From contig CAZWUO010000001.1 of NCBI GenBank assembly GCA_964636675.1, positions 639 through 64,638 of the forward strand: a stretch of 64,000 nucleotides of DNA, read 5' to 3'. The stretch is from an uncultured Ectothiorhodospiraceae bacterium. Lineage in GTDB: Bacteria > Pseudomonadota > Gammaproteobacteria > S012-40. A model generated the notes under the pieces. It searched no databases. It saw only the letters and a list, made by a program, of their open reading frames with translations, and was not told the origin of the DNA. Made by a program: the position numbers and the translations under genes. Of this stretch, positions 7,414 to 35,619 are shown piece after piece (the stretch's first letter is position 1; each line of letters starts with the position of its first letter).

Positions 7414-7456
7414 CCTAGATTCCGCAGTTGACCACGATGCGGCATCGTTAAGCCGC
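7414..7456. repeat. Truncated copy (left terminal inverted repeat plus about 20 bp) of the MITE-like repeat family also present at 15420, 24510 and 35501
   Basis: cctagattccgcagttgacc...ggcatcgttaagccgc matches the 5' end of the 15420..15647 copy. It overlaps the spoVR stop codon. Confidence 0.6.
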
Positions 7457-8953
7457 AATCTCTTTTTTCTGTTCATGGGTTAATTCAACGGCGTTATCCT
7501 CGGTAACGGTCTCTAGGCGTACCGTAAACCCCCATAGTCGCGTGAGATGTTTTATTACCTGATCGACAGTTGCAGCAAGTGGTTTACGGTTGTATTGTTG
7601 GTGGCGTAAGGTCAATGCGCGATCGCCACGCATGTCTACATTATACACCTGAATATTAGGTTCTTGGCTTCCTAGATTATATTGATCCGCAAGTAATGTG
7701 CGAATTTGTTGATAGCCTTCATCATTATGAATTGCAGATATTTCGATATTGCGATTTTTGTCATTGTCTAGAACAGCGAACAGTTTTAAGTCGCGTATCA
7801 CTTTAGGTGACAAATATTGTGAAATAAAGCTTTCATCTTTAAAATTTCTCATGGCAAAGTCCAAAGTATCGATCCAGTCTGTGTTTACTAAATCAGGAAA
7901 CCATTTTGTATCTTCCTCGGTAGGGTGTTCGCAGATTCGCCTGATATCACTCATTATCGAAAATCCAAGCGAGTAGGGGTTTATTCCACTATAGTGGGGT
8001 GAGTCGAAATCGGGTTGGTAAGTTACATTACTATGTGACTTGAGGAATTCAATCATAAAACCATCAGTGACGAGATTTTCATCATAGAGTTGATTTAAAA
8101 TCGTATAGTGCCAAAATGTTGCCCAACCTTCATTCATCACTTTAGTTTGTTTTTGTGGATAAAAGTATTGGGATATTTTTCTGACTATGCGTACGATTTC
8201 TCTTTGCCAAGGTTCTAGTAGAGGGGCATTTTTTTCGATAAAGTAGAGTATGTTTTCCTGAGGTTCTTCTGGGAAACGATCAACTATTTTTTCTTTTTTC
8301 TCATTTTCTCGTCTAGGCAACGTGCTCCATAGCTCATTAACCTGAGACTGCATATAAACTTCTCGTTCTTTGAGCCTTGCTTGTTCTTCTTTCATGGACA
8401 CAGGGTGGGGCCGTTTATATCGATCAACTCCGTAGTTCATTAGCGCATGACAGGAATCCAATATTTCTTCGACTGCAACTTCGCCATATTTTTCTTCGCA
8501 GTCAGTCACAAAGTCCTTGGCAAATACGAGATAATCAATAATCGCATCTGCGGAAGTCCATTGTTTAAATAAATAGTTGTTTTTAAAAAATGAATTATGT
8601 CCATAAGCTGCATGTGCAAGCACAAGTGCTTGCGTCATCATCGAGTTTTCTTCCATTAAATAGGATATACATGGATTCGAGTTTATAACAATTTCGTAGG
8701 CTAAGCCCATTTCTCCGCGACGATACTTTTTCTCCGTGTCCATAAATTGCTTACCGAAAGACCAGTGGCTATAACCCACCGGCATTCCAACTGAGGAATA
8801 CGCATCCATCATCTGTTCTGCGGTTATAACTTCTATTTGGTTTGGATAGGTATCGAGCTTGAATTTCCGAGCAATCCTCGATATTTCTTGGTCATATCGC
8901 TCAATCAACTCGAAGGTCCACTCAGATGTTTCAGATATTGGCTTGTGTGTCAT
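7448..8953 (-). CDS. spoVR: SpoVR/YcgB-family protein
   Basis: 501 aa. Conserved gene order prkA-yeaH-spoVR on the same strand. Typical SpoVR-family length and motifs. Confidence 0.85.
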   Translation of the reverse strand: MTHKPISETSEWTFELIERYDQEISRIARKFKLDTYPNQIEVITAEQMMDAYSSVGMPVGYSHWSFGKQFMDTEKKYRRGEMGLAYEIVINSNPCISYLMEENSMMTQALVLAHAAYGHNSFFKNNYLFKQWTSADAIIDYLVFAKDFVTDCEEKYGEVAVEEILDSCHALMNYGVDRYKRPHPVSMKEEQARLKEREVYMQSQVNELWSTLPRRENEKKEKIVDRFPEEPQENILYFIEKNAPLLEPWQREIVRIVRKISQYFYPQKQTKVMNEGWATFWHYTILNQLYDENLVTDGFMIEFLKSHSNVTYQPDFDSPHYSGINPYSLGFSIMSDIRRICEHPTEEDTKWFPDLVNTDWIDTLDFAMRNFKDESFISQYLSPKVIRDLKLFAVLDNDKNRNIEISAIHNDEGYQQIRTLLADQYNLGSQEPNIQVYNVDMRGDRALTLRHQQYNRKPLAATVDQVIKHLTRLWGFTVRLETVTEDNAVELTHEQKKEIAA

Positions 8954-8961
8954 ATAACGTT

Positions 8962-10272
8962 CTACGTTTCATTGTTTTTGCTAAAGAGTTCCCGAAAAAC
9001 AGGATAAATGTCTGCGACATCGTGTAACTGCTGCATCGCAAAATTTGGATAAGTCGATACTATTTTTTCATACTCATACCACAGGCTTTGGTGGTTTTGC
9101 GGGGTTATTTCTACGTATGCAAAATATTGTACTAATGGCATAATGTCCTCTTCCAAGAGCTTTTTGCACAACGGGGAGTCATCATGCCAATTATCACCAT
9201 CTGATGCTTGGGCAGCATAAATATTCCATTCCTCTTCCGAGTATCGTTCTTGTGCGATTTTTTTCATTAAGTGTAATGCGCTCGATACAACTGTTCCACC
9301 TGTTTCGCGAGAATAAAAAAAGTCTTCTTCGGATACTTCTTTGGCGATAGTATGGTGTGATATGAAGACGAGTTCAATTTTTTCATAATTACGATTTAGA
9401 AATAGATAGAGAAGAATAAAGAATTTTTTAGCCATATCCTTCTTTTTTTGATCCATAGACCCCGATATATCCATGAGACAAAACATGACTGCCTGGGTTG
9501 TTGGTTTTTGGATGTCGACCCTATTGTTATACCGTAAATCAAAAGTGTCGATAAAGGGAATCGCATCTCGTTTCCTCTTTAGACCTTCAATTTTTTTTCT
9601 TAATTGAATGACCGGTAAATCGTCTTCGGAAGACGATTCTAATAGCAATTCTAGCTCTTTTTCTGTTTCGATTATTTTTTTTCTATAGGGATTGCGCAGT
9701 GCAATTCTGCGAGCTTGGGCACTACGCATTGAACGCAGAATATTAATGTTTGTAGGTACACCTGATGTAGTGAATCCCGCTCTGGATTTGCTTTTTTCAT
9801 ATATCGTGGAAAGTTTTGTTTTAACCAAGTTTGGAAGTTCAAGATCCTCAAAGAAAAACTCCATGAACTCTTCTTTACTGAGTTCAAAGACAAAGTCATC
9901 AGCACCCTCACCTTGATTCGACGGCTTATTTCCTTGTCCATTTCCTTTGCCACCTCTTGGTCTCGGTATTTTATCGCCGGGTACAAAATCATGATTTCCA
10001 GGATGGATAATATCTCGTTGGCCGCCTTGGCCATGATATATAGTCGGTTCAGAAATGTCTTTTGCAGGAATTGAGATTTTTTCACCACTGTCTACGTCAG
10101 TGATGCTTCGATTTGCAATGGCGTCAGTGACCGCCTTCTTAATTTGGTTTTTATAGCGCCGAATAAAACGTTGACGATTTACTGCACTTTTGTTTTTCCC
10201 ATTAAGACGACGATCAACAAGTCTGTACACAGTGTCAACCTTTATGAAGACTTGCGTACGCGTAAATACCAA
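8962..10272 (-). CDS. yeaH: YeaH/DUF444 family protein (vWA-like)
   Basis: 436 aa. Gly-rich basic segment RPRGGKGNGQGNKP typical of YeaH. Sits between prkA and spoVR. Its start overlaps the prkA 3' end. Confidence 0.85.
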   Translation of the reverse strand: MVFTRTQVFIKVDTVYRLVDRRLNGKNKSAVNRQRFIRRYKNQIKKAVTDAIANRSITDVDSGEKISIPAKDISEPTIYHGQGGQRDIIHPGNHDFVPGDKIPRPRGGKGNGQGNKPSNQGEGADDFVFELSKEEFMEFFFEDLELPNLVKTKLSTIYEKSKSRAGFTTSGVPTNINILRSMRSAQARRIALRNPYRKKIIETEKELELLLESSSEDDLPVIQLRKKIEGLKRKRDAIPFIDTFDLRYNNRVDIQKPTTQAVMFCLMDISGSMDQKKKDMAKKFFILLYLFLNRNYEKIELVFISHHTIAKEVSEEDFFYSRETGGTVVSSALHLMKKIAQERYSEEEWNIYAAQASDGDNWHDDSPLCKKLLEEDIMPLVQYFAYVEITPQNHQSLWYEYEKIVSTYPNFAMQQLHDVADIYPVFRELFSKNNET

Positions 10273-12164
10273 TCACAAAGTAAACGTACTTGTTTCGAGG
10301 TGTAGCCTTTGTCTGACATACGTTGCAAGAAGTCATCGTGCTTTTTCTTATCATCAGAGGAAGATTTTGTATTAAATGAGATAACGGGTAAAAGTTCTTC
10401 CGTATTAGAGAACATTTTTTTCTCTATGACATTTCTGAGTTTTTCATAGCTTGTCCAGCTAGGGTTTTTTCCTTTGTTTGCGGCTTTTGCTCGCAGAACA
10501 AAGTTTACGATCTCATTCCTAAAATCTTTAGGATTGCTGATTCCTGCTGGTTTTTCTATTTTTTCCAATTCTTCATTTAGTGCGGATCGACTAAATATTT
10601 CCCCGGTATCTGGGTCACGATAGTCTTCGTCTTGAATCCAATAGTCTGCATAGGTGACATAGCGGTCAAATATATTTTGACCATACTCTGAATAACTTTC
10701 TAGATACGCGGTTTGTATTTCTTTCCCAATAAATCCCACATATTCCCTAGCGAGATATCCTTTGATAAATGACAAATAACGCTCTTCAATTTCAGAAGAG
10801 AATTGTTCTTGTTCTATCTGCTGTTCCAATACATAGAGAAGATGAACCGGATTTGCTGCTATCTCCGAGTTATCATAATTAAACACTCGTGATAGTATTT
10901 TAAACGCGAAGCGAGTCGATAAACCTGTCATTCCTTCATCAACACCGGCAAAATCTGTATATTCTTGATAAGATTTTGCATGGGGGTCAGTATCTTTTAA
11001 ATTTTCTCCATCATAGACTCGCATCTTTGAATAAATATTCGAGTTTTCGGGCTCTTTCAGGCGAGATAATATGGCAAATTGAGCCATCATTTTGAGTGTA
11101 TCGGGCGCGCATGGGGCTTGAGAAAGCGAGCTTTCGCGCAAAAGTTTATTGTAAATTTTGATTTCGTCGGCTACCCGTAAACAGTAAGGGACTTTCACAA
11201 TATAAATTCGATCAAGAAATGCTTCATTATTTTTATTGTTTCTAAATGTTTGCCATTCGGATTCATTGGAGTGAGCAAGGACTATTCCATCGAATGGTAT
11301 AGCACCTAATCCTTCAGTGCCTTTATAGTTACTCTCTTGAGTTGCGGTTAACAGAGGATGTAACACTTTAATCGGTGCTTTAAACATCTCGACAAATTCT
11401 AATAGACCTTGGTTAGCTAAGCATAGTCCTCCTGAATAGCTATAAGCATCAGGATCATCCTGTGCATATTCTTCTAGTTTTCGGATATCTACTTTACCTA
11501 CTAAGCTAGAAATATCTTGGTTGTTTTCATCGCCAGGTTCGGTTTTGGCAATTCCCGATTGCAAAAGTATTGATGGCTTGAGCTTAACAATTTTAAATTT
11601 GGTAATATCGCCATTAAATTCTTGCAACCTTTTTACAGCCCAGGGTGACATCATTCCATTTAGATAGCGACGTGGTATGCCATAATCCTCTTCAAGAATT
11701 TCGGCATCCTCTTCTACGGAAAAAAGTCCCAGAGGAGATTCATTGACGGGGGATCCTTTGATGGCATAGAACGGTGTTACTTCCATCAGTGATTTCAGCT
11801 TTTCTGCTAACGAAGATTTTCCACCACCAACAGGGCCTAACAAATATAGAATTTGTTTTTTCTCTTCTAAGCCTTGTGCCGAGTGTTTGAAATAAGAAAC
11901 TATTTTTTCCACCGCGTCTTCCATGCCGTAAAAATCTTTGAATGCCGGATAAATTTTTATCATGCGATTGGAAAATAATCGGCTCAGCCGTGGATCTGTT
12001 CTTGTATCAATAATTTCTGGTTCGCCAATAGCAGCTAACATTCTTTCCGCTGCGGTAGCATATGCAGAGGAATCAGACTTGCAAAGCGTAAGATACTCCT
12101 GAATGGAATATTCTTCTTCTTTGGCTGCATCAAAACGTGTTTGATAATGATTGAATATGCTCAT
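10242..12164 (-). CDS. prkA: PrkA-family serine protein kinase (AAA-type)
   Basis: 640 aa. Walker A GPVGGGKSS. Strong end-to-end resemblance to E. coli YeaG/PrkA. Confidence 0.9.
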   Translation of the reverse strand: MSIFNHYQTRFDAAKEEEYSIQEYLTLCKSDSSAYATAAERMLAAIGEPEIIDTRTDPRLSRLFSNRMIKIYPAFKDFYGMEDAVEKIVSYFKHSAQGLEEKKQILYLLGPVGGGKSSLAEKLKSLMEVTPFYAIKGSPVNESPLGLFSVEEDAEILEEDYGIPRRYLNGMMSPWAVKRLQEFNGDITKFKIVKLKPSILLQSGIAKTEPGDENNQDISSLVGKVDIRKLEEYAQDDPDAYSYSGGLCLANQGLLEFVEMFKAPIKVLHPLLTATQESNYKGTEGLGAIPFDGIVLAHSNESEWQTFRNNKNNEAFLDRIYIVKVPYCLRVADEIKIYNKLLRESSLSQAPCAPDTLKMMAQFAILSRLKEPENSNIYSKMRVYDGENLKDTDPHAKSYQEYTDFAGVDEGMTGLSTRFAFKILSRVFNYDNSEIAANPVHLLYVLEQQIEQEQFSSEIEERYLSFIKGYLAREYVGFIGKEIQTAYLESYSEYGQNIFDRYVTYADYWIQDEDYRDPDTGEIFSRSALNEELEKIEKPAGISNPKDFRNEIVNFVLRAKAANKGKNPSWTSYEKLRNVIEKKMFSNTEELLPVISFNTKSSSDDKKKHDDFLQRMSDKGYTSKQVRLLCDWYLRVRKSS

Positions 12165-12777
12165 CAGATTTGCCTCCTAATGAGTGTTTGTACTTACTCA
12201 AATGCGGCAAACATTTACCGCCAATTCTGTGGTTAATGCAGTTAAGTGCATGAAAAAAAACTAAAAACCACTCAATGATATTCTAATTTAGCGAGCAAGA
12301 TATAAGCCAAGAGAATAAAATCGTGCTGTAGGCTCTATATCGTCGATTATATTAGTTGATAAACCAATACTGGTTAGGTACTTGGAGTCATAATACGCAA
12401 AAAAATGCGAAAATTTGTTGACTCTAGTTACGCATTTCGTGCTTGGGTTAGACAATTTAATGACGCTCTCAAGCATTTTGCAAAGGGAATTGGGCTGAAG
12501 TTTTTATGTGCCAAATCTTTCAAAGATAGGTGTTGTTTTTTACGCAAAAACAGGCCTTTTAGGGAGAAAAAAAATTAATACGTATCATTAAAAAAAAGTA
12601 TTTGTATCTTTTTTATGGACTATTATTGTAGTAAGTACGCCAATCGAAAATGCAAGCAGGACAAATGGATACTAAGATAAAAGGAGTGTTATATACACAT
12701 TAAATTTTCGTGGTGTTCTTGGGGTAAAATCTAATCTCAGGATTCGTTAAGAGTTATAATTATAGAGGAGATCATTT

Positions 12778-13308
12778 GTGAAGCTTCCGTTACAAATAAC
12801 AACGCGAAAACTTTCCTTACCGAAAAACGCTGCAGACATGATTAAGCAAAAAGCGAACAAACTAGAGACTTTTTATGACAAAATCATTGGGTGTCGCGTT
12901 ATGGTTGAGACACCACACAAGCACCAAAATCAGGGAGTATTATATAATGTTAGAATTGTAATTAGTGTCCCTGGATCAGAACTCATCGTGAAAAGAGAGC
13001 CTAACCAAGGTATCTATATTGCTATTCGTGATGCCTTTGATGCTGCAAGACGACAAATTCAAAATTTTGCGCGTAAACGTAGAGGAGAAATAAAGACCCA
13101 TCACGTCATTCCAACCGCTACAATCACTGAAATCTTTCCTTATATGGGATATGGCTTTATGACGACTGATGACGGTCGACAAATCTATTTTCATACCAAT
13201 AGTTTGATCAATCAGGATATTGCAGAAGTGGAAATAGGAGCTTCGGTGCGATTTGCCGAAAAGCAAGGCATGGATGGCCCTCAAGCGAGCACCGTTGCGT
13301 TGATCTAA
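12778..13308 (+). CDS. hpf: Ribosome hibernation factor (HPF/RaiA) N-domain fused to a C-terminal cold-shock-like (CSD) domain
   Basis: GTG start after agaggag SD. N-terminal 110 aa match the HPF/YfiA pattern (LQITTRKL...A..KLETFYDKI....V...PH). C-terminal 65 aa match CspA-like motifs (GYGFMTTDDGRQIYFH...VEIGASVRF...GPQAS). Confidence 0.7.
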   Translation: MKLPLQITTRKLSLPKNAADMIKQKANKLETFYDKIIGCRVMVETPHKHQNQGVLYNVRIVISVPGSELIVKREPNQGIYIAIRDAFDAARRQIQNFARKRRGEIKTHHVIPTATITEIFPYMGYGFMTTDDGRQIYFHTNSLINQDIAEVEIGASVRFAEKQGMDGPQASTVALI

Positions 13309-13382
13309 TAAATACAGAGATACCCTATAGCTAATAACGGTGTTTGTACGATCTCGGAGCTGTGAGTATTGGGAAGTATCTA

Positions 13383-13422
13383 AAAGCCTTTTCATTCTAT
13401 GGAATGAAAGGGCTTTTTCTTT
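13383..13422 (+). terminator. Rho-independent terminator downstream of hpf
   Basis: aaagccttttcattc-tatg-gaatgaaagggcttt followed by a T-run. Confidence 0.5.
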
Positions 13423-13549
13423 GTTAATCAATTATATAAGGTGTTAAGTGAAAGAATAAACTAAAGGTTCGTCGGTTTTATGTCGAAATGCTTGTGTACA
13501 TAGATTATGCACTCAACCCATTTACGAGAATAATACGGCGGTTCTTCCA

Positions 13550-14284
13550 ATGCCCTCAAAACCTTATAAGCAATTAAAAGATGGTGAGATTTCCAATGAT
13601 TTTGTCAAAAATTATGCGCCTTTAGTTAAGCGTATCGCGTATCATTTGATGGCTCGATTGCCCGCGTCGGTTATTGTCGATGATTTAATTCAGGCTGGTA
13701 TGGTCGGTTTGCTTGAAGCGTCACGGAATTACAAGGCAGAATTAGGCGCTAGTTTCGAGACCTATGCGGGGATTCGCATTCGCGGGTCAATGTTAGATGA
13801 ATTAAGACGAAATGACTGGGCTCCTAAGTCAGTCCATCGAAAAACGCGAGAATTAGCACAGGTTGTGCGTAAAATCGAAGGAGAAACGGGTAGAGATGCG
13901 CGTGATGATGAAGTCGCTAAAGCACTTAATATTACCTTGGGCGAATACTATAAGATACTGCAAGATGCGAGTACTGCGAGAATGTTCGGTTTTGAAGATT
14001 TAGGGGTCAATGAAGATACGCTTGACGCGGGAATACGGGATGGTGCGCGGAGTACGCCTCTCGATAAGATTCAAGACGAACGTTTTAAGAAAAAGCTCAA
14101 AGAAGCAATATCTGGCTTACCCGAGCGGGAGAAAATGGTGGTTACACTTTATTATGACTCTGAGCTAAATCTTAGGGAAATCGGTTCAGTATTAGGTGTG
14201 AGTGAATCGCGAATTAGTCAACTACTAAGCCAAGCGATGATACGGTTACGCGCACGCATGAAAGAATGGGTGATAGATTCTTAG
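13550..14284 (+). CDS. fliA: Flagellar sigma factor sigma-28 (FliA/RpoF)
   Basis: Sigma-70 region 2 (DLIQAGMVGLLEA), region 3 and a region-4 HTH (LNLREIGSVLGVSESRISQLLSQA). 244 aa. Confidence 0.85.
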   Translation: MPSKPYKQLKDGEISNDFVKNYAPLVKRIAYHLMARLPASVIVDDLIQAGMVGLLEASRNYKAELGASFETYAGIRIRGSMLDELRRNDWAPKSVHRKTRELAQVVRKIEGETGRDARDDEVAKALNITLGEYYKILQDASTARMFGFEDLGVNEDTLDAGIRDGARSTPLDKIQDERFKKKLKEAISGLPEREKMVVTLYYDSELNLREIGSVLGVSESRISQLLSQAMIRLRARMKEWVIDS

Positions 14285-14318
14285 CGCAAATTTAGTTAGA
14301 TTTGAAACAGGTATAACA

Positions 14319-14762
14319 ATGTTATTGAAACCCCATTTAAAGAATTGCCAAAAGCTTTATGAGCAAAATTATCGAAATTTACTGGCGATAATGCCTGAGT
14401 TAGTCATTATAGAAATGCAAAAAAATAACTATGGGCTTCCTGCTTACGGCTTAAAAGTCCACATACGCGAGCGTACAAGATATACAACGTTGCTAAGCTT
14501 TGATATTAATCAGAATATTGAAAGTCCTTTTATAAAGGCTTCTGTGTTTCAAGTGCGGATGTATCACGATGCTAGAGTAGCGGAAGTGGTTTCTTATCAA
14601 GGTCATCGTTGTCAACAGGCTCACTACGCATATCCCAACCAAAATATGTACCACAAAGACGAAAAAAAACAATTAAACTTATTACTTTCCGAAGTAATCG
14701 AGCTTTGTCATGATAATGGCTTGAACGCGATTCCAAATATTCATTCCTTCGAAATAAATTAG
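14319..14762 (+). CDS. Hypothetical protein (147 aa) downstream of fliA
   Basis: ORF with reasonable codon usage and no recognisable motif. Possibly co-transcribed with fliA. Confidence 0.5.
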   Translation: MLLKPHLKNCQKLYEQNYRNLLAIMPELVIIEMQKNNYGLPAYGLKVHIRERTRYTTLLSFDINQNIESPFIKASVFQVRMYHDARVAEVVSYQGHRCQQAHYAYPNQNMYHKDEKKQLNLLLSEVIELCHDNGLNAIPNIHSFEIN

Positions 14763-14973
14763 CTCCCTTCTTACATTATCAGTGATCATTATGCGTGCGC
14801 TACGAGTATAGCTTTGCATTTGTTACTGAATATTCCGCCTTCGGAAACAAAATTTGCTGGATGGCTCATCCGTTGCCATTGATGTCTTCCCTCGTGATTT
14901 TTGTGAACTTAGATAAGTTGAATTATCTGGTTTTGCAGGGCAAATTCGGCTGATTTTGGCTTTTCCAGTTTTA

Positions 14974-14989
14974 TGTGAATTAATTCACA
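14974..14989. promoter_or_regulatory. Perfect CRP/Vfr-type palindrome TGTGA-N6-TCACA
   Basis: tgtgaattaattcaca, embedded in the 18-bp perfect palindrome atgtgaattaattcacat, about 100 bp upstream of the small acidic ORF starting at 15090. Confidence 0.45.
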
Positions 14990-15089
14990 TTTTTTCTTTT
15001 ATTCTTGGTTAATTTAATTTGAGTCCAGACGATTAAAACATTAGTTCGGTATGTAAATACATTTAACGCTAATAACACAGGTGATAATA

Positions 15090-15299: not shown

Positions 15300-15419
15300 G
15301 GACGCTCTGATTAATTCTAGGCCACAGAGCTAGAAGATTTTAGTCTAGCCATTGATTCATGAATTAGTCAGAGATTTGCAAAGGGGTCTCAATTAATACA
15401 CCAGTACGGCAGCATTAAT

Positions 15420-15647
15420 CCTAGATTTCGCAATTGACCGCTGTGAGGCATCGTTAAGCGGCTGAATAAAAAACGAATGAGGTGGTTTGTCGAATTCACT
15501 CAGAGGATGAGTGCGTTACGCCATGAATAGCGCACTTATAAGCGCACTCGATAACTGCTCCATGCGTCGCCTAAGAGCGCCTACTTTTGGTGTTCTACCT
15601 CCTGCATCCATGCAGTCGTCTGCATGCCGACCAACTGCGATTCTAGG
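15420..15647. repeat. Full-length (about 228 bp) MITE-like repeat with terminal inverted repeats and a 5-bp flanking duplication TTAAT
   Basis: Ends are cctagatttcgcaattgaccgc ... ccaactgcgattctagg. Internal nested palindromes ctgcatccatgcag and gcagtcgtctgc. Flanked by ttaat on both sides. Confidence 0.7.
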
Positions 15648-15669
15648 TTAATGGATAAAAACCCTTGTG

Positions 15670-16539: not shown

Positions 16540-16697
16540 ATCCTTGAGTTATTGGTATTCCTGTTAGGAATGGTTTCCTATTATAAATATGAATTGAAGT
16601 AATGAAAAGATATTAGGTAAAATAGCGATACTTGCTTTTATCGTAGCCGCAAGATCCAATTTCGCTAAATTGGGCTTACTCTGAGGAATATTAGAAA

Positions 16698-24509: not shown

Positions 24510-24636
24510 CCTAGAATCCGCAGTTGGACGACATGCAGAGTGCGCTCATCCTCTGGGTGAATTCGACAAACAAGCTCATTCGTTTTCTCATCCATCGCTT
24601 AACGATACCTCATAGCGGTCAACTGCGGAATCTAGG
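24510..24636. repeat. Short (127 bp) MITE-like repeat copy with both terminal inverted repeats and the 5-bp flanking duplication TTCAA
   Basis: cctagaatccgcagttgg ... ggtcaactgcggaatctagg, flanked by ttcaa on both sides. The interior is an internally deleted version of the 228-bp copy, in opposite orientation. Confidence 0.7.
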
Positions 24637-27842: not shown

Positions 27843-27924
27843 TTCGATGCGTAATATAGTGCAGGCACTGTGTATGCGGGTTGAAATAATGCGGAGTTTA
27901 TAATAAAAAAAGGTAATAAAAAAA

Positions 27925-27950
27925 GGGTGGCTAATAAGCCACCCTTTTTT
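27925..27950. terminator. Bidirectional rho-independent terminator (htpG 3' end and small minus-strand peptide gene)
   Basis: gggtggct-aataa-agccaccc flanked by an A-run upstream and a T-run downstream. Confidence 0.7.
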
Positions 27951-27971
27951 GATTCTGTTTATTCTTAACGC

Positions 27972-28043
27972 TTAAACAGAAGCCAAAGGTAGCAGTACGA
28001 AAAGTAATAGAGTACCGCCAAAAAAGATCAATGGAACTTGCAT
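27972..28043 (-). CDS. Candidate 23-aa hydrophobic peptide MQVPLIFFGGTLLLFVLLPLASV
   Basis: ATG 8 nt after the AGAGGAG SD. Ends at the bidirectional terminator. Below the ORF-track length cut-off. Confidence 0.35.
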   Translation of the reverse strand: MQVPLIFFGGTLLLFVLLPLASV

Positions 28044-28275
28044 TATGTGAACTCCTCTAAAAAGTAACATCCCAAATGCTCCCCTCCCAAAGGGAGCGCC
28101 CTGTAACTGTGAGCAATAACTCGAACAAATAATCAACATCTATAATAAAGTTAATTACTTGAAGATGTAACATAAACAAGTTTAATAATCTCTGCAAGCG
28201 TTATTTATAGAATCGCTTCTAAAGTGGTAATTATCATCAATATGAATTTGTCTCAGATCAGCTGAATAAAGACAT

Positions 28276-28304
28276 AAAAAAAGCCGGTATAAATACCGGC
28301 TTTT
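28276..28304. terminator. Bidirectional hairpin terminator
   Basis: aaaaaagccggtat-aaa-taccggctttt, a perfect 9-bp stem with flanking A-run and T-run. Confidence 0.5.
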
Positions 28305-28368
28305 AAATCACGTGTATAATATCTCACGTAACGCGATGCAATACGTGAGTGAATATGTCGAGTGGATT

Positions 28369-28473
28369 TTAGCCCATCGCCATACCTAAGAACATAAGTC
28401 CAAAAGTTATTACTATAAGGAAAACCACGATTATCGTATCGTCTTGGCTTACGTCAGTTCTTTGTTTTGCCAT
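28369..28473 (-). CDS. Candidate 34-aa single-TM peptide MAKQRTDVSQDDTIIVVFLIVITFGLMFLGMAMG
   Basis: ATG 9 nt after the AGAGG SD. Paralogous to the peptide at 28740..28844. A hairpin (ctcacgta...tacgtgag) and a terminator follow on the minus strand. Confidence 0.4.
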   Translation of the reverse strand: MAKQRTDVSQDDTIIVVFLIVITFGLMFLGMAMG

Positions 28474-28694
28474 TGGGTATACCTCTTTTATTCAAAATTG
28501 TTAGATATTTATAAACTAAAACATTAATGTAGCAAGACAAACATTAGCAGCAGCAGGATTCGAACGCAAGCAGGCACCCATAGAATATTTATGGGTAAGG
28601 GATAAGGGCAGTTTATTAACTGCTTTCAATGGGGAAACTGGTTAAACTATGTTCTTTTCTATCTCTCCAATATATTAGCAAGAATTGAATAATA

Positions 28695-28719
28695 AGAGGG
28701 TGCGGCAAATACACCCTCT
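28695..28719 (-). terminator. Hairpin terminator downstream of the small peptide gene 28740..28844
   Basis: agagggtg-cggcaaata-caccctct followed on the minus strand by a T/A-rich run. Confidence 0.45.
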
Positions 28720-28739
28720 TAGTAAGGTATGCCCTAATC

Positions 28740-28844
28740 CTAGGCCATATTAACGCCAATAATACCTAATACAAGCGTCATAACAGCTAGATAAACTACA
28801 AACAATGTATCGTGGGTATGAATTAGACCGTCATTCTGGCTCAT
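28740..28844 (-). CDS. Candidate 34-aa single-TM peptide MSQNDGLIHTHDTLFVVYLAVMTLVLGIIGVNMA
   Basis: ATG 7 nt after the AGAGGGG SD and its own hairpin terminator. Aligns with the 28369..28473 peptide: DT[LI][FI]VV[YF]L[AI]V[MI]T[LF].L..[IL]G..M[AG]. Confidence 0.45.
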   Translation of the reverse strand: MSQNDGLIHTHDTLFVVYLAVMTLVLGIIGVNMA

Positions 28845-29116
28845 GAGTGTTCCCCTCTATTTTATTAGTTAGCACGTGATTGCCATCAAAGGCGGATAAA
28901 CCATAGCAGTTTACTAATGTATAAATCAAGTATTTTTTATAAAATATAATGTGTGATAAATGGTAACCCTATGATTTATGGATTATTGCAGGGGCATAGC
29001 AAATAGGTGCTTAGGTTTAACAAATGAGGAAATCATATAAACCAAGTATTTTGCTTATGTAATGACACTTTTGCCAGATAACATCTTCATCACCGCGGAG
29101 AGTGATTGGTTTTGTT

Positions 29117-31639
29117 TTAACCATTTCTTCTATGTTTCTTTTTTTTCGCTTGTCCATGATTATTATATTTATGGGGCTTTTTATATTTTCTTTTATAAGA
29201 TTTCTTTTTTTTCCCATGATGCTTTCGAATCTTTACATGATGTTGTTCCATTTTGTGGTGCTTGTGGGCATATTTATGCGAGCGCTTTTTAGAATATTTT
29301 CGCAAGTGTTTTACTTCATAATAATATGTTTTTGATTTAATATTTCCAGATTCATCGCTTGCTGTCACTACAATGGTATATATTAAGTTTTCATTTGATC
29401 GAGGAATTCTGGTTTTTTTCAACCAGATATCCCATCCATCTTCGGTTTTTCTTATATCCCAAAATGGCTTATTGTACCGATGGCGTCTAGGATGTTTCTT
29501 AATATCCAGGTTAGTGGAAATGTTGATGTCTAGGTTTGGTGATTCATCAACGATGTCCTTTAAGCGATTAATGCTAAGCATGTGCTCGAGCTTACGATTT
29601 GGTGGCCAAAGTCTATTTTTAGTTTCAATGATCGTAAAAGTAGGAGCGGTAGTATCAATAATGATTATCTCTTGTACAGCAACACTTGTGTTTCCGTTGC
29701 TATCGGTTGCATGCCAAGTAACGAGTGTTTGACCAAGCGGCAACGCAGTTGGAGCATTATTAGTAATGGTTACTGGAAAGATATCTTCTGCTTGCGCCGA
29801 GCCAATATTAATTTTGGTTGCAAGACTAGTCGCCTCAGAAATAATATTTTCGGGTGTACTAAGAATAGGAGGTGTCGTATCAGCAACTTGAATGGTTGAT
29901 GTTAAGCTTGAGGCATTGCCACTTGCATCAATTGCACTCATATTTATATCGGTAAACCCGACCGGAAACCACGAGTCATTTATACTGATAGTGGTGTTAG
30001 GGATACTGCAATTGTCTGTTGCGTTGATCGTCACCAAGTAGTGGGCACCTTGTAACGAAGTGGCCTCTAACATGATGTACGATGGTGTGTGAATTTGGGG
30101 TGGTGTATAGTCGTTAATAGAAATTATTACATTATCTGAATCTAATGCATCCGAATTATCACGTACTTGTAAGTTAATGTTATGAATTCCGGTTGCCAAC
30201 GGAAGTACTGGATTCATTAAGTTATTGCTGCCAAAAGTGCCTGTCCAGGTATAGGCCAACGACTGCTCAGAGTCAGGATCGTTTGATTGGCTACCATCGA
30301 GTTGTATGTTTGTAGTAAGGCCGTTACACAATAAAACTTGATCAATTCCCGCATTTGCGACGGGCTGAATATTGGGTATGGTATCTCTCACACGAAGATT
30401 AATTTGGGTGTGATTATTCGAACCCAAATTTGACGCTGAAGACGAAAATGTCAACATCTCCCCGTTATCGTTTATTGCGCTAACGAAGTCAATATTAGCA
30501 TTCAGTTGCTGCCCTTGGTGAGTCAAACTGACTCGTTCGGTGGTACCTAAGATAGTATCGTAGACAAATAAATCGCTTGAATCGTTTGAGTCGTTGCTGA
30601 CCAAGTTGCTTGCTTTTGATACATATGACACAAAACGACCGTTATTACTCATTTTGGGTATTAGACTAACGTTGTTTGCTTGAATCCCCTCCGAGGATTT
30701 ACTGATGAGAATAATTGAATCGGTAGTTTTGTTGTACAAAAAAACATGTCTAAATGTTGCATTTGTACCAGCCACTAAATTCTTAGCGTCCGATATAAAT
30801 GCAATGTATTTTCCGTTGCCACTGATATAAGGGTTTCTATTGTTGGCGACAAGAGGGCTGCCATCAAAGGTTTTGCTGATTAACTCAGAAGTACCTGTTT
30901 CTCTGTCCCAAAGAAAGACATCATACTTATTGTTGTCATCAATCGGGTCAATGTTATTCGCAACAGAAATGTAACTGATGTATCTGCCATCATCACTGAT
31001 GCTTGGAGAATTGCTGTCCCCATTAGCGCTGGATCCATCAGGAGAGGATGAGATTAATTGTACCGAATTGTTAACTACATCAAATATGAATATATCGCGA
31101 AATTGATTGTTATCGTTAGGCGCTAGGTTTGTAGCTCTGGAGTGAAAAACGATATATTTTCCATTACCACTAATTTGAGATAACGAACTTATCCCATTCG
31201 GAATGCTTCCATCATGGGTTTTACTCACTAGTGTTGTAATGTTATTTGTTATATTTCTTAAAAATATATTACCCTTGCTTCCCGAGTTAGCGGTGAGATT
31301 GTTTGCAAAAGACTCGAACACTGCCAATGTCCCATTGCTATCTATATCTGCCCGAAGGCTATTTGCATTTCCTGGATCCCCTGAATTTGAAACACTTAAT
31401 CGAGTGAATTTATTTGTTGTTCGGTCAAGCAGATAGATGTTTCTATTTGTTACCCCATCATTTATAAGATTTCTGGCAGTAGATTCGAATACGATTCTAT
31501 TAGCCTTTGCGCTTATTGAGGGAGAATAGCTTGGACCATTTCCCAATTCGCTTCCATTCTTCGAAATTATAAATGTTTCAGCAGCATTTACCGCAAAACA
31601 AAACACGAATAGAAAACTATATTGGAACAGAGCTTTCAT
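29117..31639 (-). CDS. Secreted 840-aa protein: N-terminal PD40/TolB-like beta-propeller repeats, HYR/Ig-like modules and an extreme Lys/His-rich C-terminal tail
   Basis: GGAGG SD and signal peptide MKALFQYSFLFVFCFAVNAAE. Repeated NGKYI(V/A)F.S.A.NL units. HYR-like blocks (NCSIPNTTISINDSWFPVGFTDINMSAIDASGN, VTWHATDSNGNTS). Last 65 aa about 45% Lys and 20% His. Start overlaps the upstream gene's stop (ATGA). Confidence 0.7.
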   Translation of the reverse strand: MKALFQYSFLFVFCFAVNAAETFIISKNGSELGNGPSYSPSISAKANRIVFESTARNLINDGVTNRNIYLLDRTTNKFTRLSVSNSGDPGNANSLRADIDSNGTLAVFESFANNLTANSGSKGNIFLRNITNNITTLVSKTHDGSIPNGISSLSQISGNGKYIVFHSRATNLAPNDNNQFRDIFIFDVVNNSVQLISSSPDGSSANGDSNSPSISDDGRYISYISVANNIDPIDDNNKYDVFLWDRETGTSELISKTFDGSPLVANNRNPYISGNGKYIAFISDAKNLVAGTNATFRHVFLYNKTTDSIILISKSSEGIQANNVSLIPKMSNNGRFVSYVSKASNLVSNDSNDSSDLFVYDTILGTTERVSLTHQGQQLNANIDFVSAINDNGEMLTFSSSASNLGSNNHTQINLRVRDTIPNIQPVANAGIDQVLLCNGLTTNIQLDGSQSNDPDSEQSLAYTWTGTFGSNNLMNPVLPLATGIHNINLQVRDNSDALDSDNVIISINDYTPPQIHTPSYIMLEATSLQGAHYLVTINATDNCSIPNTTISINDSWFPVGFTDINMSAIDASGNASSLTSTIQVADTTPPILSTPENIISEATSLATKINIGSAQAEDIFPVTITNNAPTALPLGQTLVTWHATDSNGNTSVAVQEIIIIDTTAPTFTIIETKNRLWPPNRKLEHMLSINRLKDIVDESPNLDINISTNLDIKKHPRRHRYNKPFWDIRKTEDGWDIWLKKTRIPRSNENLIYTIVVTASDESGNIKSKTYYYEVKHLRKYSKKRSHKYAHKHHKMEQHHVKIRKHHGKKKKSYKRKYKKPHKYNNHGQAKKKKHRRNG

Positions 31640-32064
31640 AGTGAACCTCCATCTATCTCGCTGAATATAGGGAAATTCAGATTATCCTGAGTGCTGTTTT
31701 TTGCTTGTAAATCGAATACTAAAATGGGGTCTTGAGAAACGGAGCTTGCGGTTGTGTAAGTCGTAAAGCTCCAATAGGATTTGTACATACTCGAAATGGG
31801 TAAGTTTCCGATTTCGAGTATATGATTGGTTGGGTTACTCATTATATCGATACTACGAGGAATGAGAACGACGGAGTTAAAATTCTTCAAGGTGTTGTTA
31901 ATAATAGTGATCTCATAAACTGCGCTGGTGTAATCATCTTTCGAAAATACTGAAACCAAGCGATGTTTAACAGAGATAGCATTTTGCTCAGCCATCAAAT
32001 GACCTGGCCAAATTAATAAGACGCAAATCATAAATGCCAATATATACCTGTAATGATTCATCAC
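31636..32064 (-). CDS. Small secreted hypothetical protein (142 aa), translationally coupled to the downstream 840-aa gene
   Basis: Signal peptide (ILAFMICVLLIWPGHLMAEQ). The stop overlaps the start of the 29117..31639 gene. Confidence 0.55.
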   Translation of the reverse strand: MMNHYRYILAFMICVLLIWPGHLMAEQNAISVKHRLVSVFSKDDYTSAVYEITIINNTLKNFNSVVLIPRSIDIMSNPTNHILEIGNLPISSMYKSYWSFTTYTTASSVSQDPILVFDLQAKNSTQDNLNFPIFSEIDGGSL

Positions 32065-32080
32065 TATCCCAACCCCTCTT

Positions 32081-33946
32081 TTATTGCACTACTTCTAAAG
32101 CAATAGCGCCGTTAACCGTAATATCGTTGTTTACAAAATTTGAGTCTTCGACTGAATCGTTGACTGAATAAGTTAAGCCAACTCCAGCGGGATTATTGCT
32201 CGTTGGATCGGTTAGTGCGCTAAATGCACCATCAATCTGCCCGGTGGCTGAGCCAGATGCGCCTGTGTTTGCAAACATCGTAGTCATACTGCCGCTAAAG
32301 GTGGCGTTTGCATTGTTGATAGGAACGTTAATGGCTTGAGCGGTGATTTCATAATTTGTTGCATCAGGATCATTGATGTCTAACTTGATATCTGCAGATA
32401 TCGTTTGATTGGAAAAATTCGCGGTTAGGGAGGTTTGAGATCTGTTAAGTGTGCCGATATTTCCAAAGTTGTCGGTAGGTGAGGTATTGCCAATGACTGC
32501 ATAATGTGCAACACCGGTAGATGGCAAGGTAATTTGCTCTGCTGATTCATCCATTAACAACCAATGTAGTTTATTTTGGGTAAGATCGATGTTGGATGCT
32601 GTCGTGCCGTCTGATAGCTTCATGCTGCCAGATTCCCACCGCCCCCAAGAAATTCCGAGAGCTGCATTTGAACCACTATCTGCATTTTTTGCAGTTCCTA
32701 TGCTCACCGTTTGTTCTTCGGTAATTAAAGCACTGTTCAATATTTTAATCTTGAACGAAGTGAGTCGTTGGTTTGTGTCGATTTGAAAATCACTCGTTTT
32801 ACGGGAATATACTGCACTCGATATGTTCAAACCATTGTTGGAAAAAATGTTGTTAGATACTGCAATATTATTCTGAGAAATTACCGGTGGCATAATAATA
32901 TTGGGAGTGGATTCGTCCGTTGAAGAATCATTTGGAGGGGGAATACTAATACTGGCTTCAGTAGAGGCATCTTCTTTTGAATGTGTATTTGAGACGATTA
33001 ACAGAACATTTTTTTTGTCCTCAATGGCAGTTTCATTTGATTGCGCGAGTATTTCGGATGATTCAGTATTTCTGACTAACACCTCTTCTTCAAGTTTGTC
33101 ATCAACAAAAATATCATCTGATTTGACCGTTGAAATGATATCTTCTGATACCGAGCTATTTGTTACACGATTATTTTCGGGGTTGACGAATGAGTCTTGT
33201 TTGCCTGCGATTGATGTTGTTACTTTGGAGTTGTTAACGATGTCTTTTGTTATAGATTTTTCTGCAATATTGGAATCAGATTGATTTGATTTTATCGCAG
33301 CAAATAATAACTCTCCAGGTGCTGAATCTAAAAGCAGGGGTTCAGATGAGAAGTCTGGAACATAACCATATTCACTGGCATCAATTTCTACGCTGCCTCC
33401 TTCATTAGCTACTACAACTCCGCCAGCCATAACGCCAATATATAACCCATTATCGTTATTGCAGTCTTCGTCACACAATCGTGCGCTATAGTCTGTTCCT
33501 CTAATGCCTATTGTTGCGATTGGAGTTGCAACTTTATACGATTTTTTATTTGCTTCACCTATAGACCCGGTAACACTTCTAAAGCTTCCCTTTAACAAGT
33601 TGAAGAATGTTCTGTCATTTTCAATATTTTCATTAAAAGTGAATATGTCAATTCTAAATCGACTATTTGGCCTGATGGCAATAAGTCCACCATCGGCCAT
33701 TCTTAGTTGGGCTTGACCGTTTTCTGATGTTATAATTGTGTCTCCCTCATTAATATCATCACCTCGATAAAGTCGTTTTATCTGTTTCGAGTCAGAATTT
33801 TTTATATGTACACCACCCAGAGAAAATAAAACTTTTCCCGCAGCAGAATAGGCTGTTATAGGAATGAATAAAATAAATAACATAAAAATAGTTTGTAATT
33901 TAGTTGTGTTGTTTTGGAAAAAATAAACTGGGTTTTCGGTAGTCAT
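32081..33946 (-). CDS. Secreted 621-aa protein: signal-peptidase-I type leader, FecR-like N-domain, long Ser/Asn/Thr/Asp-rich linker, C-terminal beta-rich domain (candidate Slam-type cargo)
   Basis: AGGAGG SD. Leader MLFILFIPITAYSAAGK with no lipobox Cys. FecR-like block GKVLFSLGGVHIKNSD...GDDINEGDTIITSENGQAQLRMADGGLIAIRPNSRF. C-terminal 200 aa of alternating hydrophobic/polar strands (GVAHYAVIGN, LTANFSNQTISADIKLDI, ATFSGSMTTMFA, AGVGLTYSV) ending VVQ. Confidence 0.7.
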   Translation of the reverse strand: MTTENPVYFFQNNTTKLQTIFMLFILFIPITAYSAAGKVLFSLGGVHIKNSDSKQIKRLYRGDDINEGDTIITSENGQAQLRMADGGLIAIRPNSRFRIDIFTFNENIENDRTFFNLLKGSFRSVTGSIGEANKKSYKVATPIATIGIRGTDYSARLCDEDCNNDNGLYIGVMAGGVVVANEGGSVEIDASEYGYVPDFSSEPLLLDSAPGELLFAAIKSNQSDSNIAEKSITKDIVNNSKVTTSIAGKQDSFVNPENNRVTNSSVSEDIISTVKSDDIFVDDKLEEEVLVRNTESSEILAQSNETAIEDKKNVLLIVSNTHSKEDASTEASISIPPPNDSSTDESTPNIIMPPVISQNNIAVSNNIFSNNGLNISSAVYSRKTSDFQIDTNQRLTSFKIKILNSALITEEQTVSIGTAKNADSGSNAALGISWGRWESGSMKLSDGTTASNIDLTQNKLHWLLMDESAEQITLPSTGVAHYAVIGNTSPTDNFGNIGTLNRSQTSLTANFSNQTISADIKLDINDPDATNYEITAQAINVPINNANATFSGSMTTMFANTGASGSATGQIDGAFSALTDPTSNNPAGVGLTYSVNDSVEDSNFVNNDITVNGAIALEVVQ

Positions 33947-33958
33947 TCGGTCTACCTC

Positions 33959-35293
33959 CTATTGTATTTTCCATTGAACAGACAAATTTATTGAAAATCT
34001 GTCGTAATCAAATAGAGAAACGGTTGAAATATTTTTTATGTACTTTATTTGTGGAATAATACTTAAATTTTTTCTAATTATTATATTTATGCCACTGGAA
34101 AAATTTGCTTTTTTTTCTTTGCGAATTGTCCCAATAAATGGTTTGTTATAATTTGAAGTAGATAATTTTATCTGTGTGAAAAATTGTTTTTTCCCGCCTA
34201 AAAAATGGTTTGTTATGATTTTTGTATGTAAAGAATTTTTTTCATACGGCGATGATTTCAATTTTGGCGCGTCATATTCAATATATCCAGCCAATAAAGC
34301 GGTAGATGGAATAAATAATTTGTATGAAAATTTGGTGTTAATTTCGATTGATCCTTGGTAGCGATCACGTAATGAAAAATTCGATGCATGTGTGTAGTAA
34401 GATATTGTGGAGCTAGTACCGAATCTAATGGTTGGCGAAGCAAAGTAATTCCATTGTGCAGTCGATCTTATGATTCCGGTATTAAATTCGGTTCCCAGAT
34501 AAAATGCGGTGACTGATATATTTGTGTTAGTTGAAAATTTGAGTCTCTTATACGACATTCCGATTGAGGACATTGCACCCGACGAGTTTACAAATGACGC
34601 TCGATTGTATCGATTATCAAATATCGCTGCACTAAGATAAATGTCAGTTCGTTTGTTAGATGAATATGTTGCTGTATTATTCATTGTTAAGCCCATAAAC
34701 TCCGAAGGCGTTGCTTTACTTTCTTGGGTTAATATTAATCCAAGAAAGGATTCATTTTCTGTGGCTGAATTCACATTGTCGTCAAATCCGCCTTTTAGTG
34801 TGACGTAGGTCTCGAAATTAATTGGTTTTTCATACAGTTTGGCATTGATTTTTTTCAACGAAACTGTGATAAATTGTTGCAATTCTCGCGGTGGTTGCAA
34901 GCTTTGAGATATTTCAAATTGTCTTTTTGCTTGATGCAGTTCATGTGCTCGATAATACGCCCGACCTAACTCAAAATGAGCTCCACCGAAGTTCGGGTGT
35001 ATGGCTACGGATCTTTCTAAAGCGAATATAGCGATGCTGGTTTTTCCGGTTTCTAATGCGGATAAACCCAATAAATAGTCAAACTGAGGGTTGCCCGCGT
35101 TAGTTTCCGCTAAGGGGTTTAGCAGCGAGAATGCTCTTATAGATTGGTTATTTGCAATAAGAACTTCGGCTTTTTCCAATAGTTCTTTTAACACATTTTT
35201 ATTCGCGGCTTCATTAATAGATTCGCTTGCTGTTACCTTGGGCAAAAAAATGGATAAAGCGAGAAGGAGAAAAAGCCATTTTGTATTTTTCAT
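33959..35293 (-). CDS. Outer-membrane protein: signal peptide, periplasmic TPR repeats, C-terminal beta-barrel (Slam / DUF560-like surface-protein translocator candidate)
   Basis: Signal peptide MKNTKWLFLLLALSIFLPKVTASE. TPR-like helices (FDYLLGLSALETGKTSIAIFALERSVAIHPNFGGAHFELGRAYYRAHELHQAKRQFEISQSL). About 290-aa C-terminal region of amphipathic beta-strands with aromatic girdle residues. First gene of a 4-gene operon, 12-nt gap to the next gene. Confidence 0.7.
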   Translation of the reverse strand: MKNTKWLFLLLALSIFLPKVTASESINEAANKNVLKELLEKAEVLIANNQSIRAFSLLNPLAETNAGNPQFDYLLGLSALETGKTSIAIFALERSVAIHPNFGGAHFELGRAYYRAHELHQAKRQFEISQSLQPPRELQQFITVSLKKINAKLYEKPINFETYVTLKGGFDDNVNSATENESFLGLILTQESKATPSEFMGLTMNNTATYSSNKRTDIYLSAAIFDNRYNRASFVNSSGAMSSIGMSYKRLKFSTNTNISVTAFYLGTEFNTGIIRSTAQWNYFASPTIRFGTSSTISYYTHASNFSLRDRYQGSIEINTKFSYKLFIPSTALLAGYIEYDAPKLKSSPYEKNSLHTKIITNHFLGGKKQFFTQIKLSTSNYNKPFIGTIRKEKKANFSSGINIIIRKNLSIIPQIKYIKNISTVSLFDYDRFSINLSVQWKIQ

Positions 35294-35500
35294 TTTTTAG
35301 TTCGCTACCAGAAAACCTTTCATACATAAGCAATTTTATCGCTAGCTGATAATTTTTACTGCGCTTGGTATCACAATAATTCTTTTTGATTTTGACGCAG
35401 TTCACGGTTTTGCTAAAAGCAAGCAAGAATTTCATTAAAACACCATATTAATAATGGTTTTATGGGGATTGTTGAATTGTTTTTTTTCTGTTTGGTATGA

Positions 35501-35619
35501 CTCATCGACTATTCACGGCATAGCGCGTTCATCCTCTGAGTGAATCCGATAAACAGGGCTATTCATTTTATAATCAATCGCTTAGCGATACCTCATGGCA
35601 GTCAACCGCGGAATCTAGG
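35501..35619. repeat. Truncated copy of the MITE-like repeat (right terminal inverted repeat plus internal region)
   Basis: ...catcctctgagtgaatccgataaac...cgcttagcgatacctcatggcagtcaaccgcggaatctagg. Aligns with the right half of the 24510 copy and the interior of the 15420 copy. Right flank tttaa. Confidence 0.6.

Follow-up and report, generated by a model that had tools for sequence, protein, structure and literature searches.

We analyzed a 64,000-nucleotide (nt) stretch of contig CAZWUO010000001.1 from an uncultured Ectothiorhodospiraceae bacterium (referred to below as the window), in which five copies or fragments of a short repeat with matching inverted ends are dispersed among protein-coding genes. 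An earlier note, made from the letters of this DNA, had described four of them as a family of miniature inverted-repeat transposable elements (MITEs). Our analysis supports that interpretation, except for the suggestions that the copies act as terminators and that all lie at gene 3' ends. Taken together, the data presented here make it very probable that the repeats are copies of a nonautonomous MITE that arose from one subgroup of IS1380-family insertion sequences (ISs).

Copies in the window and in other genomes

A search of the window with the end motif CCTAGAWTCCGCARTTG, allowing up to 3 mismatches, returned six matches against 0.54 expected, and none of 100 shuffled sequences reached six. 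Repeat finding paired all of the window copies with each other (pairs D1, D3, and I1 to I5). All four stretches named in the earlier note were confirmed in the sequence, and a fifth piece (38745-38780) had been overlooked; the inventory is therefore one full copy, one internally deleted copy, and three fragments (Table 1). Throughout, end A and end B denote the two terminal inverted repeats (TIRs), and the direction from end A to end B corresponds to that of the transposase gene in the parent IS.

Table 1. Features of the repeat family in the window (TSD, target-site duplication; W, A or T; N, any base)
Feature	Position	Strand	Remarks
Fragment, end A only: TIR CCTAGATTCCGCAGTTGACC plus 23 nt	7414..7456	+	Covariance model match 7414-7503, 18.2 bits, E = 0.0035
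Left TSD copy of full-length element, TTAAT	15415..15419	.	Fits W-T-N-A-W
Sole full-length copy, 228 bp, end A to end B	15420..15647	+	TIRs and TSD present
TIR-A of full copy	15420-15439	+	Followed by variable A+T-rich stretch
Degenerate small hairpin of full copy	~15495-15512	+	
Decayed long-hairpin region of full copy	~15513-15627	+	
TIR-B of full copy	15632-15647	+	One base short
Right TSD copy of full-length element, TTAAT	15648..15652	.	
Left TSD copy of short element, TTCAA	24505..24509	.	
Short form, 127 bp, opposite orientation	24510..24636	-	Covariance model match, 93.5 bits
Right TSD copy of short element, TTCAA	24637..24641	.	
Short-form copy: end A (at 35619), A+T-rich stretch, small hairpin	35501..35619	-	81% identical to 24510 copy (D1)
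Fragment, end B only, 36 nt (GCGCACTCTGCATGCTGTTCAACTGTGGGTTCTAGG; end B plus 19 nt)	38745..38780	+	86% complementary to 24510-24545 (I5)

The full copy carries one substitution relative to the motif at its left end (CCTAGATTTCGCAATTG) and lacks one base at its right end (CAACTGC-GATTCTAGG). The longest open reading frame (ORF) overlapping it encodes 46 amino acids (aa). A covariance model of the family matched it on the minus strand with 106.9 bits (E ~1e-28), compared with ~200 bits for intact copies, and most of its hairpin pairing is lost (1 G·U and 2 A·C). The copy at 24510-24636 has two perfect TIRs and retains the A+T-rich stretch and small hairpin, whereas its long hairpin has been excised exactly at the base of the stem; the same type of deletion is found at L022:3191-3314 and L064:519-651 (L-numbers designate retrieved loci, with coordinates within each locus). 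End B of the copy at 35501-35619 is degenerate or lost, with TTTAA adjoining end A (model match 35467-35615, 29.5 bits), and ATAAT adjoins the end B fragment. As the earlier note had stated, the two truncated copies that it listed keep one end each; in both cases this is end A.

The placement of the copies relative to genes bears out the claim of intergenic positions at gene 3' ends only in part. The copy at 35501-35619 lies between two divergent gene starts, the fragment at 38745-38780 lies 4 nt ahead of the next ORF, and the 3' end of the SpoVR gene (7448-8953, minus strand), with its stop and last codons, falls within the fragment at 7414-7456. A scan of 15420-15647 and 24510-24636 and their borders detected no terminator-like site. 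By inspection of the alignment, GTAGCG, and no T run, follows the long hairpin, and mixed A/T follows the small hairpin. The nested palindromes quoted in the earlier note are present in the sequence, but what the family conserves is the small hairpin and a hairpin of ~120 nt. For the purposes of genome annotation, the window copies show no sign of affecting neighboring genes, the SpoVR reading frame excepted. We infer that the five copies are old, decayed relics and that nothing in the window can move them.

To define the family, one genome per species was scanned for CCTAGAWTCCGCRGTTGRNC. At least 109 loci from at least ~47 assemblies matched, with plus- and minus-strand matches paired mostly 235 to 239 bp apart. 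The intact element is ~236 bp long and is bounded by TIRs of 17 to 20 nt, which were found in both complete window copies and in 79 paired copies elsewhere. Read from end A, it consists of the TIR CCTAGATTCCGCAGTTGACC, ~55 nt of fast-evolving A+T-rich sequence, the small hairpin TTCACCCA-ATG-GGTGAGTCGC, the ~120-nt hairpin, and the second TIR. Among 47 aligned copies the 17- to 20-nt ends are nearly invariant (helix 1, 98.5% paired). The small hairpin, CACC-N3-6-GGTG at ~76 to 92 nt from end A, is a conserved feature of the family, and many copies have lost its ATG. Short forms of 116 to 155 bp lack the long hairpin, having been cut at the stem base in independent lineages, the 24510 copy included.

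Besides two plasmids from cultured strains, the element was detected in Gamma-, Beta-, and Alphaproteobacteria and in Verrucomicrobiota. The majority of carriers are uncultured Gammaproteobacteria (Thiodiazotropha, Sedimenticola, Ectothiorhodospiraceae, Thiotrichales, a Legionellaceae metagenome-assembled genome [MAG], and others). The remainder include Burkholderiales (among them the isolate Rhodoferax sp. OV413), the isolate Paraglaciecola sp. MB-3u-78, a Parasphingorhabdus MAG, and several Verrucomicrobiota MAGs. Several MAGs (for example, JBNKKI, CALZHW, and JABDQW) contributed at least 10 loci to the matches, so that multiple copies per genome occur. That copies occur on plasmids, namely the conjugative IncP plasmid p5 from Caballeronia grimmiae Lep1A1 and the 564-kb plasmid of Polaromonas sp. 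P1-6 (CP087967; L197:6001-6234), indicates that the element is not an assembly artifact. No exact match to the MITE end was detected in viral contigs. A literature search that did not extend to ISfinder returned no description of the family and no paper containing the end sequence; judged by titles and abstracts, no paper naming IS1380 or ISEcp1 together with MITEs describes such a family.

Evidence of insertion was consistent across these genomes. The earlier note had reported perfect 5-bp TSDs, TTAAT and TTCAA, around the two complete window copies, and it had named copies elsewhere that lacked TSDs or TIRs as grounds for abandoning a mobile element. Both duplications are present, and the outcome elsewhere favors a mobile element: 44 of the 79 end-to-end copies are flanked by a perfect 5-bp TSD, and 15 more by one with a single mismatch. 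The expectation, obtained by setting the left flank of one copy against the right flank of another, is 7.0% (binomial p = 4e-30). All perfect TSDs are of the form W-T-N-A-W, the T of position 2 and the A of position 4 being present in 44/44, and the bases outside the 5 bp are unremarkable. This pattern is the product expected of a transposase with a defined 5-bp staggered cut.

Relation to IS1380-family insertion sequences

An autonomous element of the parental kind was found beside one of the plasmid copies. On the Polaromonas plasmid, an IS of 1630 bp (342715-344344; L197:6592-8221, minus strand; transposase UUZ66186.1) lies 360 bp from the MITE and is flanked on both sides by TTAAA. Its ends are CCTATTTTCGGCAGTTAGCG and, on the right, CCTAGAAACGGCAGTTAGCC, the latter matching the unusual end variant of the neighboring MITE, CCTAGAAACGGCAGTTGAAT. 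The single 510-aa ORF scored 155.5 bits (E = 1.6e-45) against the NCBIfam IS1380 model NF033539; as this lies under the curated cut-off of 180, we regard the transposase as a divergent member of IS1380. Its identity with the ISEcp1 transposase is 22% (E = 4e-18). A total of 7987 relatives were found in the public collection at E <= 1e-20, many of them on contigs of 1.6 to 2 kb, which is the size of an IS, and PF13701 and PF01609 are on record for the best 120 of the 7987. Sampled IS relatives with 69 to 90% identity have the same architecture, with TSDs CTGAT, TTCAA, TTGAT, TTTAT, and GTTAT. Collectively, these autonomous ISs are ~1.63 kb long, encode a DDE transposase of 510 to 545 aa, and make a 5-bp TSD at the target N-T-N-A-W.

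The resemblance between this subgroup and the MITE extends well inward from the ends. The ends of the ISs, like those of the MITE, begin CCT and contain GCAGTTG, and the hairpin TCACC..ATGGGTGA is common to both kinds of element, as are the 5-bp TSD and its N-T-N-A-W pattern. In alignment, the first ~100 nt of the MITE are colinear with the IS left ends: the end itself, a variable stretch, then TCACCC.ATGGGTGAGTCGC. In place of the ~120-nt hairpin of the MITE, the ISs have a transposase gene. Their small hairpin lies ~80 nt from the left tip and in the Polaromonas IS reads GGAGGTCACCAAATGGGTGAAGCC, comprising ribosome-binding site, stem, start codon, and stem. Enclosure of the ribosome-binding site and ATG within the conserved hairpin (GGAGGTCACCAAATGGGTGA) was observed in L197:8130-8150 (minus strand), L199, L205, L209, and L212 to L217, and such a hairpin would occlude translation initiation in this subgroup. 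At the other end of the gene, the stop codon lies within or adjoining the right inverted repeat.

All defining features of a MITE that could be tested are present: small size, absence of coding sequence, TIRs, a fixed TSD, multiple copies, and ends shared with an autonomous element. The last of these, like the shared hairpin, TSD, and target, is sharing at the level of the family. The cognate autonomous IS postulated in the earlier note exists as a kind, an IS1380-family element of ~1.63 kb with related ends; none is present in the window. The MITE thus consists of the two ends of a 510-aa-type IS, the left end having been kept through the first four or five codons. A 510-aa-type transposase acting in trans would move the MITE by binding both ends and, probably, also the small palindrome.

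Several results weigh against this derivation. No autonomous copy with the exact canonical MITE end CCTAGATTCCGCAGTTGACC was found, the sampled ISs matching at 13 of 17 positions, and seven transposase clusters with 69 to 90% identity to the Polaromonas protein yielded related ends, none of them canonical; the true partner lineage is therefore deduced rather than observed. Nor was a transposase detected in the window or around MITE copies elsewhere (~800 kb of flanking sequence), as judged around the 109 loci by inspection of the longest ORFs and by tblastn with the ISEcp1 and Polaromonas transposases. The HtpG encoded in the window is identical to one in GCA_006243245.1. In a search for empty insertion sites, the next relatives (HtpG 91% identical) were not syntenic around htpG, and they carried no MITE copy in the 22 kb examined. 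The named relatives by HtpG, Chromatiales and a Solemya gill symbiont, are ~67% identical. Likewise, the collection searched held no related plasmid without the Caballeronia insertion, and a LysR-type neighbor, sought in order to find other strains, had no exact protein on record.

The long hairpin

The ~120-nt hairpin lies between the small hairpin and end B. Neither the autonomous ISs nor ISEcp1-like elements have it, and in both the covariance model matched the small hairpin only. Across genomes the interior sequence of the MITE is highly divergent (mean column identity, 56%), while the ends hardly change and the structure is kept. In the model-based alignment of 47 copies, which was fitted to the structure, 93.7% of cells fall in standard pairs, and 37 of the 52 pairs have changed on both sides. 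None of 500 shuffles reached the observed values, and sliding the partners by 1 to 3 columns reduced pairing to 33 to 37%. RNAalifold applied to plain MAFFT alignments, which were not fitted to the structure, gave 23/43 and 30/52 compensated pairs. The changes in the interior are thus compensatory rather than codon-like.

The structure is also more stable on one strand than on the other. Without recourse to an alignment, the mean folding energy was -109.6 kcal/mol on the structured strand and -92.2 kcal/mol on the other, and it was lower on the former in 30/33 copies. Of the 47 aligned copies, 45 folded more stably on this strand when RNA parameters were used, and 46 when DNA parameters were used. 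This stable strand is antisense to the ancestral transposase direction. In the five inner helices of 21 representatives below 85% identity, G·U pairs outnumbered A·C mismatches by 94 to 8, and G·U exceeded A·C in every one of the 20 representatives from outside the window. Several wobble pairs occupy the same alignment columns in different subfamilies. The apical loops vary from one subfamily to another; the internal-loop sequences GGCAAGGCG ... AACGC are conserved in most aligned copies. Compensatory change together with stability on one strand indicates that the long hairpin acts, and is selected, as a single strand. The asymmetry follows the polarity of the element itself. Relative to local GC skew, the structured strand fell 16 versus 23 (p = 0.34), giving no bias with respect to the replication strand.

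These features could instead be by-products of mutation, with no selection involved: template switching would correct one arm against the other, and strand-biased mutation would leave G·T mismatches behind. In favor of this account, excision exactly at the hairpin base in independent lineages shows that the hairpin forms in DNA. The variation of the apical loops by subfamily, which leaves only the fact of being a hairpin in common, and the failure to find a promoter, an Rfam match, or an orientation bias agree with it as well. Nevertheless, we consider this explanation unlikely. The 94:8 ratio, its recurrence in 20/20 nonwindow representatives, and the fixed-column wobbles are in our judgment stronger than known strand mutation biases would produce; the asymmetry tracks the polarity of the element and neither GC skew nor the neighboring genes; and the internal loops are conserved. 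As an alternative to filler, a functional, strand-specific module acquired by the MITE lineage is possible, and we propose it tentatively, at well below even confidence.

What form such a module would take is a more speculative matter. Our preferred reading, held with low confidence, is that the long hairpin functions in an RNA transcribed in the direction from end B to end A. Such a transcript would begin with a very stable 5' hairpin and continue into the exact antisense of the translation-start region of the parent IS (GUAGCGACUCACCCAUUGGGUGA versus UCACCCAAUGGGUGAGUCGCUAC), so that each MITE copy would act as a brake on the transposase that moves it, in the manner of RNA-OUT, the antisense RNA of IS10. 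The main alternative is that the hairpin may belong to a single-stranded DNA transposition intermediate. If so, it would mark a single-stranded DNA step in IS1380-family transposition, the mechanism of which, to our knowledge, has not been worked out. A number of observations tell against the RNA form. No sigma-70-type promoter was conserved in position, whichever strand was read (at most 9/47 copies had one in the same column), and none was predicted in the window copies 15420-15647 and 24510-24636. In tandem gene contexts, the structured strand was co-oriented with neighboring genes in 11 cases and anti-oriented in 14, showing no bias. No Rfam 15 model matched at gathering score in the window, and 18 loci with well-preserved copies yielded two tRNAs only. 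Finally, the asymmetry is equally strong with DNA parameters, which leaves RNA and single-stranded DNA indistinguishable by this measure. The MITE itself is ordinary in kind; the long hairpin is the part of it that could prove new.

ISEcp1, other repeat families, and minor observations

IS1380-family elements have ends that begin with CC and make TSDs of 4 to 5 bp, a description that fits the CCTAG... ends and 5-bp TSD of the MITE. A further member for comparison is ISEcp1, which mobilizes blaCTX-M and blaCMY genes. Its left inverted repeat, CCTAGATTCTACGT, is associated with 5-bp direct repeats (PMC6061673) and has its first 9 nt in common with the MITE end. The left end of ISEcp1 on plasmid pC15-1a contains the small hairpin TTTCACCCATTGGGTGAAAG at nt 74 to 93, the same distance as in the MITE, and ISEcp1 and ~30 relatives carry TTTCACCCAWTGGGTGAAAG at that distance from the tip. 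In 80 ISEcp1-like metagenome loci (transposases 84 to 100% identical), the hairpin is conserved while the preceding ~55 nt vary freely. The ISEcp1 hairpin lies ~95 nt upstream of the annotated start codon, whereas that of the 510-aa group encloses the start codon; all of L111:797-910 and loci L112 to L191 show TTTCACCCAWTGGGTGAAAG at this ~95-nt spacing. ISEcp1-type transposases 83 to 100% identical over 420 aa were retrieved from diverse sources, those named including Labilibaculum (Bacteroidota) and an ANME-2 archaeon.

Given these resemblances, we weighed whether the 420-aa transposases of ISEcp1 type, and not the 510-aa group, mobilize the MITE. The first 9 to 10 nt of the ends are identical (CCTAGATTC), the hairpin stands at an equal distance, both make a 5-bp TSD, and ISEcp1 tolerates imperfect right ends. 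ISEcp1-like transposases are moreover very widespread, the best 120 matches being at least 83% identical. The inner part of the end differs, however (TACGTCAGTAC versus CGCAGTTGACC), and the flanks of ISEcp1-like copies, read from the listed sequences, are mostly of the TANTA type (TAATA, TATTA, TACAA), while the MITE target is strictly W-T-N-A-W. With the 510-aa group, the MITE has in common GCAGTTG, its target, and the context of the start codon, ATGGGTGAGTCGC. Mobilization by ISEcp1-type transposases is accordingly quite improbable. As direct parents, ISEcp1-like ISs were rejected: the 80 loci have only CCTAGATTC and the small hairpin in common with the MITE, and their flanks differ.

All forms of the MITE keep the small palindrome, as do the 510-aa group and ISEcp1, whether or not it contains a start codon, from which we infer that it is a cis element. 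Its conservation in both ISEcp1 and the group with 22%-identical transposases points to a cis element that is family-wide, a candidate transposase-binding site or translational control element. The MITE constitutes a natural minimal substrate in this respect, since divergent copies keep only the ~20-nt ends and the CACC..GGTG palindrome. Together, the W-T-N-A-W target and the strand-specific, covarying hairpin provide two handles on the mechanism of IS1380-family transposition. More broadly, a widespread MITE family is added to the IS family of ISEcp1, a main vehicle of CTX-M and CMY beta-lactamase genes.

Repetitive extragenic palindromic (REP)/REPIN-like or regulatory palindromes, spread by RAYT or kept by the host and not derived from a DDE transposon, would likewise be intergenic, highly structured, and stable on one strand as befits elements handled as single strands, but this origin is barely credible here, because 5-bp TSDs occur far above chance (REP elements are not known to duplicate their target), the ends align colinearly with those of an IS1380-family IS, and one MITE lies 360 bp from an IS that has the same variant end. 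An integron attC site was rejected on sequence grounds, the copies being dispersed with TSDs and showing no apparent core-site motif. Tn3-derived inverted-repeat miniature elements (TIMEs) are of similar size to the MITE and have a 5-bp TSD; the ends of the Tn3 family, however, are ~38 bp long and begin GGGG. The MITE ends begin CCTAG and match those of the IS1380 family rather than those of TIMEs, which were rejected for this reason.

In habit, the closest known repeats are the Correia elements (CREE/NEMIS) of Neisseria and the ERIC/IRU elements of enterobacteria, which form hairpins and have long and short forms. Both are small, intergenic, noncoding, and bounded by TIRs, with long hairpins and coexisting internally deleted forms, and their transcribed hairpins affect mRNA processing and stability. 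Correia elements duplicate TA, and both families are confined to one genus or family. The MITE, in contrast, has unrelated ends and a 5-bp target and spans several classes and a second phylum. It also differs in that no effect on neighboring genes or orientation bias was seen.

Additional variants of the MITE were noted. Ultra-short derivatives of 39 to 52 bp, scarcely more than two TIRs, occur at L014:6497-6548, L008:142-180, and L097:823-864, and two of the three keep perfect 5-bp TSDs (TTTAA and ATGAT). In some sublineages, the ends are altered at several positions on both sides simultaneously (L006:2563-2681 and L006:5264-5357; L012:882-997, L026:5983-6100, and L105:1199-1329; L192:3001-3234), with the end pairs CCTAAAAAGATCAGTTG...CAACTGATTTTTTTAGG, CCTGGA...TCCAGG, and CCTAGATTCGGCAG...CTGCCGAATCTAGG. 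Such two-sided variants either track variant transposases or arose by copying of one end from the other. A 163-bp variant is composed of the same parts rearranged, with the CACC..GGTG palindrome at the tip of the long hairpin and no A+T-rich stretch (L038:1800-1962 and L108:3664-3826, Paraglaciecola sp. MB-3u-78; L017, L056, L060, and L096, a Thiotrichales MAG).

Among the autonomous ISs, several copies (L199/L203, L206, L211, and L214 to L217) have nonmatching 5-bp flanks, and these flanks are found again beside other copies; L206, for instance, has the left flank of L207 and the right flank of L205. Recombination between copies or chimeric assembly of the repeat could account for these mismatches. 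The surroundings of the Polaromonas IS (L197:438-2798 and 8204-11964) form a patch of mobile elements, which also contains an IS66 unit and two genes for site-specific integrases.

In the window, the first MITE fragment is preceded by an XrtA/PEP-CTERM-associated ATPase gene and a Wzy_C-type gene (1260-7407). It is followed on the other strand by SpoVR, a DUF444 (YeaH-like) gene, and a 640-aa ORF (7448-12164). The final two sense codons and the stop of the SpoVR frame (GCG GCT TAA; 7448-7456, minus strand) lie inside the fragment, which suggests that the insertion, or a later deletion, replaced the native end of the gene. An identical SpoVR protein with the same junction is present on a Logan contig (L001). 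Beyond the last fragment, a nitrate/nitrite assimilation cluster (43225-50197) includes a gene for the large subunit of NirB (43225-45663), followed by a small ORF and a molybdopterin nitrate-reductase-like gene (46028-48214).

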